Source: Spirochaetia bacterium (GTDB taxonomy: Bacteria; Spirochaetota; Spirochaetia; G963692905). From it: a stretch of DNA of 64,000 nt. Each line of letters opens with the position of its first letter. The first letter of the stretch is position 1. The DNA lies in contig OZ253446.1 of the NCBI GenBank assembly GCA_965261245.1, forward strand, positions 2,069,587-2,133,586, read 5' to 3'. This document shows positions 23,919 to 24,668 of this stretch, piece by piece. The position numbers were made by a program, and so were the translations under genes. Below the pieces are notes generated by a model. The model was not told the DNA's origin. It was given only the letters and a program-made list of their open reading frames with translations, and did not search any database.

Positions 23919-23947
23919 TTGCATTATACCGTACAATATGATATAAT
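23919..23947 (+). promoter_or_regulatory. Sigma-70-type promoter (TTGCAT-17 nt-TATAAT) driving a leaderless transcript
   Basis: Near-consensus -35 and -10 hexamers with 17-nt spacer; ATG of the small gene lies 7 nt after the -10. Confidence 0.55.
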
Positions 23948-23953
23948 ATGCAT

Positions 23954-24301
23954 ATGGATTGGAACATGATAGCGGGGTTTGTAGCCGTAATTACATCTGT
24001 AATTGGCGCCATGGCGGTATTCAACCGTCAAACCAACAGACGCTTTGATGATGTCGACAAACGCTTTGATGATGTCGACAAACGCTTTGATGACACCAAC
24101 AGACGCATTGATGACACCAACAGACGCATTGATGACACCAACAGACGCATTGATGATGTCAAGCATGACATAGCCTCGGTTCGGGAAGAATTATATAATC
24201 TGACCTTACATCTTATTCCCCGCCCGCCTGCCCGCAAACAGGAGAATGTGTACGAAACGGCAACAGAGCAAAGCGTGGTTAGGGAAAAACCGAAGGAATA
24301 G
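23954..24301 (+). CDS. Small N-terminally membrane-anchored coiled-coil protein with six in-frame 7-aa repeats
   Basis: N-terminal TM MIAGFVAVITSVIGAMAVF; repeats RFDDVDK x2 then R(F/I)DDTNR x3; tandem paralog at 24372-24668. Confidence 0.5.
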   Translation: MDWNMIAGFVAVITSVIGAMAVFNRQTNRRFDDVDKRFDDVDKRFDDTNRRIDDTNRRIDDTNRRIDDVKHDIASVREELYNLTLHLIPRPPARKQENVYETATEQSVVREKPKE

Positions 24302-24336
24302 AGTAGTAGCCCCTAATGCGGTATAGGAAATAATAT

Positions 24337-24365
24337 TTGCATTATACCGTGCAATATGATATAAT
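24337..24365 (+). promoter_or_regulatory. Sigma-70-type promoter (TTGCAT-17 nt-TATAAT), duplicate of 23919-23947
   Basis: Identical hexamers and spacing; ATG at 24372 lies 7 nt downstream of the -10. Confidence 0.55.
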
Positions 24366-24371
24366 ACACGT

Positions 24372-24668
24372 ATGGATTGGACCATGCTGGCAGGATTTGC
24401 AGCCGCAATTACATCTGTAATTGGCGCGATGGCAGTATTCAACCATCAGACCAACAGACGAATTGATGATGTCAAGAAGGACATAGCCGCGGTACGAGAC
24501 GGAGCAGACAAGAATATAGATTCGCTCAGGCAGGAAATGGGCGCAATACGAAAAGAATTACATGATCTGGTGCTACATCTTATCTCCCGCCCGTCTGCCC
24601 GCAAACAAGAGAATGCGTACGAAACGGCGCCAGAGCAAAGCGTGGTTAGGGAAAAGCCGAAGAAATAG
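24372..24668 (+). CDS. Small N-terminally membrane-anchored coiled-coil protein, tandem paralog with fewer repeats
   Basis: MDWTMLAGFAAAITSVIGAMAVF N-terminus and ARKQENAYETAPEQSVVREKPK C-terminus nearly identical to the upstream paralog. Confidence 0.5.
   Translation: MDWTMLAGFAAAITSVIGAMAVFNHQTNRRIDDVKKDIAAVRDGADKNIDSLRQEMGAIRKELHDLVLHLISRPSARKQENAYETAPEQSVVREKPKK

Follow-up and report, generated by a model that had tools for sequence, protein, structure and literature searches.

In i-spanins (Rz-like proteins), the topology is type II, N-in/C-out, and the coiled coil lies in the periplasm; their genes sit in a lysis cassette together with those for a holin, an endolysin, and an o-spanin lipoprotein. 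Leaderless bacterial genes are transcribed from, or from no more than 1–2 nt away from, the first base of the start codon, with a −10 hexamer that ends about 6–7 nt upstream of the ATG and no Shine-Dalgarno sequence. Among spirochaetes, leaderless mRNAs are reported as common in Leptospira (about 440; PMC5243855), and 85 have been described in Borrelia (PMC5314773). Borrelia also encodes the Bdr (Borrelia direct repeat) proteins, a multi-copy paralogous family of membrane-anchored proteins with variable numbers of internal direct repeats and of unknown function (PMC3303823, PMC10016077, PMC2525819). Here, we describe two adjacent genes (A and B) and a third, separate gene (C) in a 64,000-nt stretch of a Spirochaetia genome (the window; contig OZ253446.1), all of which recall one or more of these systems. 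We consider it on balance probable that A and B represent a pair of cassettes from a tandemly amplified, lineage-restricted family of leaderless, small, single-pass inner-membrane coiled-coil proteins with a putative spacer or tether role.

Tandem paralogues and the 21-bp repeat array

Gene A (nt. 23954–24301, forward strand, 115 a.a., ATG at 23954) encodes an MDWN tail, a transmembrane (TM) helix at residues 5–23, nine heptads without interruption, and a conserved tail rich in Pro (HLIPRPPARKQENVYETATEQSVVREKPKE). Gene B (nt. 24372–24668, forward strand, 98 a.a.) shares the N-terminal anchor and the C-terminal tail of A, with a single RIDDVKK unit and an 18-residue (7+11) insert absent from A. 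The two genes are tandem paralogues, 87% identical over 156 nt at the 5′ end and 81% identical over 150 nt at the 3′ end (repeat families D15 and D17). The in-frame array in gene A lies at nt. 24032–24156 (forward strand) and holds six 21-bp units of seven codons each, scored by Tandem Repeats Finder as period 21, 6.0 copies, 90% matches, and no indels (score 159), which agrees with the first-pass annotation of six units in A against about one in B. The encoded units read RFDDVDK (twice), RFDDTNR, RIDDTNR (twice), and RIDDVKH; in the unit register taken from repeat family D13, two sub-types are discernible, a DKRFDDV-type and a TNRRIDD-type, and units 4 and 5 are the same in sequence.

The automated ORF list places the start of gene A at 23948. 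Since this ATG lies within the 6-nt discriminator and is absent in four of the seven family copies, we take 23954 as the conserved start. In the public record, gene B is annotated from Met5 (P0001, 94 a.a.), a start used by the public gene calls for all of P0001–P0004, and translation of A and B could begin at this conserved residue, 12 nt downstream of Met1. If Met1 is correct, gene callers cut both proteins short, and the predicted true starts, here and in relatives, coincide with the predicted transcription start.

Seven copies of the family were compared across three related loci. All 21 pairs gave a dN/dS of 0.18–0.54 and every indel was in frame, so the duplicated genes are truly protein-coding, as had been presumed. 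The proteins measure 80, 83, 98, 105, and 115 a.a. and carry between one and six heptad units, and the steps between them are 7-residue units or the 18-residue (7+11) block, both compatible with a coiled coil. The number of cassettes differs as well: two in the window, two plus one truncated in L002, and at least four in L001, the A and B region of the window being otherwise 98.8% identical to L001, and gene A 98.8% identical in nucleotides to L001 copy c1. The three loci are close relatives and their agreement is only partly independent. Searches for relatives of A and B in GTDB representative genomes, JGI metagenomes, and IMG/VR returned nothing, and the synteny of the window is not kept in an uncultured Spirochaetaceae MAG (leucyl-tRNA synthetase at best 60% identical).

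Conserved promoters and leaderless layout

A conserved 40-nt promoter block with an A/T-rich upstream part precedes gene A (nt. 23908–23947, forward strand). It contains a −35-like TTGCAT (23919–23924), a 17-nt spacer, and an extended −10 element, TGaTATAAT (23939–23947; TG at 23939–23940, TATAAT at 23942–23947), followed by 6 nt and the ATG at 23954. The equivalent block of gene B (nt. 24326–24365, forward strand) is likewise conserved, with TTGCAT at 24337–24342 and TGaTATAAT at 24357–24365 (TATAAT at 24360–24365), again 6 nt from the ATG at 24372. The two promoters, described earlier as identical, are essentially so, differing by a single base (A/G) in the spacer. Among five independent paralogues, the block shows 94.5% mean pairwise identity, compared to 70% for the 6-nt discriminator, 35% farther upstream, and 76–81% at third codon positions. 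The discriminator varies in sequence while its length is constant in 7/7 copies, and the arrangement TGnTATAAT, 6 nt, ATG is found in all seven promoter-bearing copies at the three loci. A Shine-Dalgarno sequence precedes the next gene but was not found ahead of A or B. Every paralogue has the geometry expected of a leaderless mRNA, in line with the first-pass annotation. That the promoter is conserved throughout, even in its spacer, could point to gene conversion or to a site bound by a regulator instead of constitutive strength.

Around A and B, promoter-like hexamers are no more frequent than expected (six observed versus 6.4 expected), and the significance of these promoters rests instead on the arrangement kept in 7/7 copies and on the enrichment of the exact 6-nt spacing in the window. 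Among ATG-started ORFs of at least 80 a.a. in the window, a −10 hexamer lies exactly 6 nt before the ATG at 11 starts, compared to an average of 1.9 for other spacings; in five of the 11, the ORF is long and has no start codon farther upstream than this ATG, and tatD and several large genes are among the ORFs concerned. The leaderless layout noted earlier for A and B is thus present but not special to them, and the geometry appears common to many genes of this spirochaete. As in the leaderless mRNAs of Leptospira interrogans and Borrelia burgdorferi, the −10 element is located directly upstream of the start codon and a Shine-Dalgarno sequence is lacking; the difference is that, here, leaderless transcription is deduced from sequence geometry and its enrichment. 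Applied to annotation, a rule of −10 hexamer, 6 nt, and ATG would set right many start sites across this spirochaete lineage, which has been poorly sampled.

Protein architecture, relatives, and a possible spacer role

Hydropathy and heptad analysis support the N-terminal TM helix and following coiled coil previously suggested for both proteins. Kyte-Doolittle values average 2.35 over the TM helix of A and 2.06 over that of B, and the heptad register of A is unbroken, F, I, or L occupying position a and V, T, or L position d. For B, AlphaFold2 modelled one helix (residues 3–72) and a non-helical tail, at low confidence (pLDDT 52.8). No K/R residues precede the TM helix and four to five occur in the 15 residues after it; because of this charge distribution, the positive-inside rule predicts an N-out/C-in topology with the stalk and tail in the cytoplasm. 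The A-M-A at residues 19–21 could alternatively be a signal-peptidase site, in which case the protein would be a soluble periplasmic coiled coil.

When A, B, and C were searched against Pfam, NCBIfam, PHROGs, and PADLOC, all matches were of the coiled-coil type and below threshold; no relatives came from sequence searches against the PDB. A profile search of 1.84 billion proteins returned 52 representatives at E < 1e-3 that share the N-to-C layout and an LIP motif, and BLASTP aligned copy 2 of L002 with P0009 over the whole length (41% identity, E = 7e-10). On these similarities, A and B are members of a sparse family of small proteins, so far unannotated, that is characterized by (N/D)(K/R)R(I/F)DD repeats. 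Its unnamed members (P0008–P0056) resemble A and B in having a short tail (often with DW), a TM helix, RQxNKRIDD units, and a final helix ending in L-I-P-x-R. Unlike A and B, each occurs as a lone gene, in contexts unrelated to one another; the long PRPPARKQE... tail is missing, and an ordinary Shine-Dalgarno leader precedes some of them (L083, L085). Close relatives within the wider family also vary in repeat number (e.g., P0008, 112 a.a., and P0012, 79 a.a.). No Pfam or NCBIfam model or source name was found for P0008–P0056, which thus represent an unmodelled small membrane protein family whose coiled coil shifts in length by whole structural units.

As we picture it, each cassette would be self-contained. 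Because the extended −10 element of the conserved sigma-70-type promoter stops exactly 6 nt ahead of the ATG, RNA polymerase should initiate at the first base of the start codon, giving a transcript that would be translated with neither a leader nor a Shine-Dalgarno sequence. The predicted product comprises a 4-residue N-tail, one TM helix, an Arg-rich juxtamembrane stretch, a continuous heptad stalk, and a conserved, probably disordered, Pro-rich C-terminal tail. Slippage or unequal recombination among the 21-bp units may add or remove whole heptads, whereby the coiled-coil register would be kept, and unequal crossing-over between the ~420-bp cassettes may alter gene copy number. Our best guess at function is that of a membrane-anchored, oligomeric coiled-coil spacer or tether, in which repeat number would set the distance between the membrane and a conserved C-terminal peptide able to bind a partner. 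The family is a natural "molecular ruler" series that might serve to test what such anchors do.

The downstream FRG-TPR gene

The gene 68 nt after gene B (nt. 24736–26034, forward strand, 432 a.a., with a Shine-Dalgarno-like GGGGGG run) encodes a protein with FRG and TPR domains (Pfam FRG, 1.4e-9; TPR_1, 5.8e-29), the FRG domain (PF08867) scoring 39.1 bits against a gathering cut-off of 25. FRG is described as a putative NADase effector of prokaryotic immunity in the ART superfamily (PMC9503650). The FRG part matched models of the PADLOC candidate PDC-S15 (down to 1.5e-15), and the FRG-TPR gene is a candidate anti-phage effector. Between 24301 and 24736, no terminator-like site was found on the forward strand, nor was a consensus promoter found for the FRG-TPR gene, and given the short gap free of such a site, the gene may be co-transcribed with gene B.

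TPR domains typically bind short peptides, and the C-terminal tail is the most conserved soluble part of the A/B-type small proteins. The small proteins might accordingly be accessories of the FRG-TPR gene within one operon, serving as decoys, regulators, or tethers at the membrane, with the TPR domain binding their conserved C-terminal peptide. The array does lie directly upstream of the FRG-TPR gene, on the same strand, at 3/3 related loci; however, as these loci are close relatives, the adjacency may be merely inherited. FRG and FRG-TPR homologues in other lineages (P0065, P0071, and P0063) have no adjoining small TM genes, and no FRG gene lies near the distant small-protein relatives P0008, P0011, and P0034 at the loci examined. 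The FRG gene is also only about 76% identical between the window and L001, against the near identity of A and B, and its GC content is 38–39%, compared to about 46–48% for the windows covering A and B and 55–65% in the flanks. The unequal identity and the GC difference point to separate histories, and we regard an accessory role as unlikely. A metagenome scan with the FRG alignment and a tblastn search of the FRG domain against plasmids and phages both returned nothing.

More doubtful still is a stronger version of this idea, in which A and B join the FRG-TPR protein in a hitherto undescribed module of two parts, so that an ART-like immune effector (a putative NADase) would be gated or tethered at the inner membrane. 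In such a module, anchors of variable repeat length would present the conserved Pro-rich C-terminal peptide to a TPR sensor.

Comparison with phage membrane-active proteins

The first-pass annotation had likened A and B, speculatively, to small phage-type membrane-active proteins, which would make them phage-derived i-spanins, holins, XhlA-like proteins, or small membrane toxins. There is a likeness: i-spanins (Rz), small holins, and XhlA are also small, with one TM helix and a coiled coil, and the N-terminal TM helix and coiled coil of A and B resemble those of i-spanins in particular. Weak PHROG matches were obtained to phrog_1009 (unknown function; 1.1e-8 for A, 0.012 for B), to the Rz-like spanin phrog_739 (E = 0.003–0.01), and, for gene C, to the holin phrog_689 (0.029), but such scores are typical of repeat and coiled-coil composition. 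The neighbours of A and B (tatD, yjeF, FRG-TPR, and a GLUG surface protein) are not lysis genes, there are no adjacent capsid or integrase genes, and an ORF for a partner lipoprotein is absent. No relatives were found in IMG/VR or among phage or plasmid records, tblastn of protein A against the plasmid records giving no match. The N-out/C-in topology predicted from charge is opposite to that of i-spanins, and strong conserved promoters with several intact copies under purifying selection poorly suit a lethal product. A phage-type membrane-active function for A and B is therefore very improbable and the earlier comparison finds no support; as gene families go, their difference in repeat number is unremarkable variation, and nothing ties either these genes or the gene C family to phage.

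Gene C and the Borrelia Bdr proteins

Gene C (nt. 46185–46601, forward strand, 138 a.a.) encodes a conserved N-terminal domain, a coiled coil, and a C-terminal TM helix (residues 119–137). Its promoter (nt. 46150–46178, forward strand) has TTGACA at 46150–46155, a 17-nt spacer, and TATACT at 46173–46178, followed by 6 nt and the ATG at 46185; the same arrangement precedes three tandem family copies in L086. The earlier description is borne out as to the small size, the leaderless-type start, the C-terminal TM helix, and the TTGACA/TATACT promoter, but the gene belongs to a family separate from that of A and B. Homology to A and B was ruled out, with an hhalign probability of 16% and a BLASTP match confined to a 30-residue coiled-coil stretch. 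The exact sequence of gene C is absent from the public record, and its family (P0057–P0061) is paralogous with variable 7/11-residue repeats.

Another reading makes A, B, and C true homologues of the Bdr family. Like Bdr proteins, they come from spirochaetal, multi-copy, paralogous families of small, inner-membrane-associated proteins, each gene with its own promoter, and have a central coiled coil of 7/11-residue direct repeats whose number varies between paralogues and strains (one to six heptad units in A/B, 7/11-residue units in the gene C family). The gene C family, further, has a conserved N-domain, repeats, and C-terminal TM helix in the Bdr order, and tblastn matched P0061 to annotated Borrelia bdr genes (E = 2e-4, 31% identity) in an alignment that includes the C-terminal TM helix. 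However, the NCBIfam model Bdr_N_group2 matched a Borrelia control (2e-19) and not P0061, P0057, or P0059; the NCBIfam Bdr N-terminal models did not match A, B, or C; hhalign aligned only 36 coiled-coil columns; and protein A found no match among plasmids by tblastn. The anchor of A and B is at the N-terminus, the opposite end to that of Bdr, where only gene C has its TM helix, and all three genes are chromosomal, unlike the bdr genes of cp32-type or linear plasmids. Shared descent from Bdr is, in our estimation, even less probable than a phage origin, and the gene C family resembles Bdr in architecture only. The parallel suggests that membrane-anchored coiled coils with variable repeats may have recurred as a design among spirochaetes, though nothing in the three genes is surprising enough to alter current views.

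Least probable of all is that the A/B ORFs are untranslated and the repeated unit is a promoter, regulatory element, or small RNA: the promoter block is the best-conserved part, the start site differs between gene callers, and gene C lacks annotation in the public genome record, but dN/dS is well below 1, the length differences are all in frame with the heptad pattern preserved, the frame is conserved in distant relatives, and an Rfam scan of the window matched two tRNAs only and neither A nor B.

Gene C is flanked by a perfect 58-bp direct repeat, with the left copy at nt. 46091–46148 and the right copy at nt. 46631–46688 (both forward strand). This repeat is the spacer between cassettes of a collapsed tandem array, and a tandem array of the gene C family is observed in L086.

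Genes A and B and Their Relatives

Gene A (23954-24301, forward strand, 115 a.a) is preceded by a -35-like TTGCAT (23919-23924), a 17-nt spacer, and an extended -10 element (TG-a-TATAAT, 23939-23947), followed by 6 nt and then ATGGATTGG at 23954. This arrangement is repeated 418 nt downstream in gene B (24372-24668, forward strand, 98 a.a), where TTGCAT (24337-24342) and TATAAT (24360-24365) are again followed by 6 nt and an ATG at 24372. The first-pass annotation, which described tandem genes with identical TTGCAT-17-TATAAT promoters, was correct in these respects. While a mechanical ORF list starts gene A at an ATG within the 6-nt discriminator (23948), this codon is missing in four of seven family copies, and we have therefore assigned 23954 as the conserved start. 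The difference in repeat number noted earlier (six 21-bp units in gene A, about one in gene B) was borne out both by Tandem Repeats Finder (24032-24156; 6.0 copies, 90% matches, 0 indels, score 159) and at the protein level, where gene A contains six heptads of the form R(F/I)DD(V/T)(D/N)(K/R) and gene B one. Within the gene A array, units 4 and 5 have the same nucleotide sequence, pointing to recent expansion.

The family is very sparse: among 5.8 billion clustered proteins, four clusters were retrieved. Gene B accounts for one of them (its NCBI record begins the protein at Met5), and the other three come from a single ENA metagenome assembly, in which two contigs display the same arrangement. 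L001 carries at least four tandem copies; L002 carries two, along with a third that lacks a promoter and is truncated at its N-terminus. This truncated copy (L002 8247-8492; P0006, 81 a.a) has no TM helix and abuts an FRG-TPR gene; it is a cassette in decay or else encodes a soluble variant made from read-through transcripts. No close sequenced relative of the host spirochaete was present in the collections searched, its LeuRS being at most 60% identical to the nearest, from an uncultured Spirochaetaceae MAG. Substitution patterns indicate that the copies are protein-coding genes under purifying selection, with dN/dS of 0.18-0.54 in every pair of the seven intact copies (Nei-Gojobori; dS up to 0.70), and every length difference preserves the reading frame.

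When 1.84 billion representative proteins were searched with a profile, 52 matched at E<1e-3. These are small and share one layout: the N-tail is short and frequently includes DW, a TM helix comes next, then R/K-Q-x-N-K/R-R-I/F-D-D units that recur every 7 or 11 residues, and the final helix ends in L-I-P-x-R. One of these (P0009) aligned end to end with an A/B-family member (41% identity, E=7e-10), and repeat number differs even among close relatives within the set (P0008, 112 a.a versus P0012, 79 a.a). None reached the Pfam threshold or was meaningfully named, and their genomic contexts are unrelated.

Protein Architecture and Length Variation

The proposed N-terminal TM helix and coiled coil were both recovered, the former as a hydrophobic helix at residues 5-23 (mean Kyte-Doolittle 2.35 in A and 2.06 in B) and the latter in gene A as nine heptads in a single unbroken register from residue 31 (a = F/I/L, d = V/T/L). 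AlphaFold2 modeled the gene B product as a single helix (residues 3-72) with a non-helical tail, at low confidence (pLDDT 52.8). In both proteins, no Lys/Arg residues precede the TM helix and 4-5 occur within 15 residues after it, a bias that, by the positive-inside rule, would leave the very short N-tail outside and the C-terminal part in the cytoplasm. The AMA at residues 19-21 could be read as a signal-peptidase site; however, this reading is disfavoured by the absence of a basic n-region and by an Arg cluster directly after the hydrophobic core. The best-conserved soluble segment is the C-terminal tail (HLIPRPPARKQE...REKPK). We favor a model in which the A/B proteins are putative cytoplasm-facing, membrane-anchored spacers that would present this conserved peptide. 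The A/B proteins are new and unannotated, but their type is well known: small coiled-coil proteins anchored in the membrane, present in several copies, and varying in repeat number. In design they are most like Borrelia Bdr.

Family members measure 80, 83, 98, 105, and 115 a.a, the steps being full heptads or a single 18-residue (7+11) block, such that length changes keep the coiled coil in register; one TM helix additionally carries a 4-residue deletion. Genes A and B are 98.8% identical between the window and L001, yet number two versus at least four copies. The simplest mechanisms would be slippage or unequal exchange altering the number of 21-bp units, and unequal crossing-over altering the number of cassettes.

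Promoters and Leaderless Geometry

Promoter hexamers alone were unremarkable (6 promoter-like sites found versus 6.4 expected), and the evidence for promoters comes instead from conservation and spacing. Across five independent paralogues, mean pairwise identity is 94.5% in a 40-nt promoter block (-46 to -7), compared to 76-81% at third codon positions, 70% in the 6-nt discriminator, and 35% upstream of the block. The discriminator varies in sequence (atgcat, acacgt, atacgt, acgcgt) but is constant in length across copies, as expected if the distance from the -10 element to the start codon matters. No Shine-Dalgarno sequence was found upstream of A or B, while the gene directly downstream of B has a G-rich one.

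Of the window's ATG-started ORFs of 80 a.a or more, 11 have a -10-like hexamer exactly 6 nt upstream of the start codon, versus a mean of 1.9 ORFs for all other spacings from 0 to 15; when a -35 element is also required, eight of nine matches have the 6-nt spacing. These starts include tatD (23585, reverse strand) and long ORFs at 2230 and 11999 (reverse) and 17500 and 43627 (forward). A TATAAT-like -10 element, 6 nt, and ATG also occur at 55580 (reverse), 63010, and 46185 (both forward). Five of the 6-nt-spaced ATGs, in long ORFs including tatD, are the most upstream start possible, and several starts in the window are probably wrong in public gene calls. The earlier proposal of leaderless A/B transcripts is thus well supported by sequence evidence, but not as a feature special to these genes, given the 11 ORF starts that share the geometry; leaderless initiation is apparently widespread in the host genome. 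Among the distant relatives, L083 and L085 have ordinary Shine-Dalgarno leaders and L084 looks leaderless, suggesting that leaderlessness tracks the host genome and not the family. The predicted habit, here read from sequence geometry, is in line with the transcription starts mapped in Leptospira (about 440 leaderless mRNAs; PMC5243855) and Borrelia (85; PMC5314773).

Genomic Neighborhood

An FRG + TPR gene (24736-26034) begins 68 nt downstream of B with no terminator-like site between them. The FRG portion is matched by PDC-S15, a PADLOC candidate, and a published proposal places FRG among the ART-superfamily effectors of prokaryotic immunity (PMC9503650). The array adjoins this gene at each of the three related loci, so the genes may be co-transcribed and functionally linked; however, we consider such a link unlikely, given that three loci with FRG or FRG-TPR homologues in other lineages have no A/B-like neighbors and that no FRG gene lies near the distant A/B relatives at the loci fetched. 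Two further results speak against a link: the gene is compositionally foreign (38-39% GC versus 55-65% in the neighborhood), and it is only about 76% identical between the window and L001, compared to 98.8% for A+B and 96-99% for flanking genes. Both features are suggestive of horizontal acquisition or rapid diversification. Upstream of the array, L002 (1-4900) encodes a PLD-DEAD/helicase-DUF3427 protein, a DUF4325 protein, and a PIN-like gene where the window has tatD/yjeF, placing the array at a synteny break beside defence-like genes. The suggested likeness to phage-type membrane-active proteins found no support, with no viral relatives of A/B found in IMG/VR, no plasmid match for protein A, no lysis cassette at the locus, only weak, composition-type PHROG matches, and a predicted topology opposite to that of an i-spanin.

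Gene C and Other Repeats

Gene C (46185-46601, 138 a.a) shares the promoter and start geometry of A and B, as first described, with TTGACA (46150-46155, forward strand), a 17-nt spacer, TATACT (46173-46178), 6 nt, and ATG at 46185. It belongs to a distinct paralogous family (P0057-P0061) whose members share a conserved domain at the N-terminus, followed by 7/11-residue repeats that vary and a TM helix at the C-terminus; homology to A/B was rejected, as hhalign against the A/B profile gave a probability of only 16%. At a second locus of this family (L086), a GLUG-domain gene is followed by three tandem copies, each with a -10 element, 6 nt, and ATG. On either side of gene C lies one copy of a perfect 58-bp direct repeat (46091-46148 and 46631-46688) that contains a hairpin (CACCGCATA...TATGCGGTG) and corresponds to the spacer between the tandem L086 copies, suggesting that gene C is the single remaining unit of a collapsed tandem array. 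While P0061 matches annotated Borrelia bdr genes (tblastn, E=2e-4), the Bdr N-terminal domain model had no match in the family and profile alignment was confined to 36 columns of coiled coil; we therefore rejected Bdr membership, the likeness being one of architecture.

A dispersed intergenic repeat with the core CTACCCCC(N)GTCRCNNNTGTAA occurs at eight sites versus 0.08 expected (7653, 17411, 23750, and 23839; 33751, 33920, 46846, and 46934 on the reverse strand). The core sits inside longer, often paired units of 84-135 nt, with further spans at 61145-61316 and at 7561-7695, which resembles 23658-23792. It had no Rfam match, often lies directly upstream of leaderless-type promoters, and may act as a regulatory site or represent a REP/MITE-like element.

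The window also encodes several large proteins of one family, marked by Cys-rich DUF7107-like repeats and GLUG motifs (59-2230 and 26074-28716, reverse strand; 43591-46041, 47164-50133, and 50222-52930, forward strand), of which the 26074-28716 and 43591-46041 products share the C-terminus ...VTCGA(N/T)GD(Q/E)IPGQ. Both the A/B and gene C families adjoin such genes (window, L001, L002, and L086). Finally, two adjacent long ORFs (8343-11294, reverse strand) consist of about 96-bp (32-residue) tandem repeats in 15-20 copies (D1, D2, D5).
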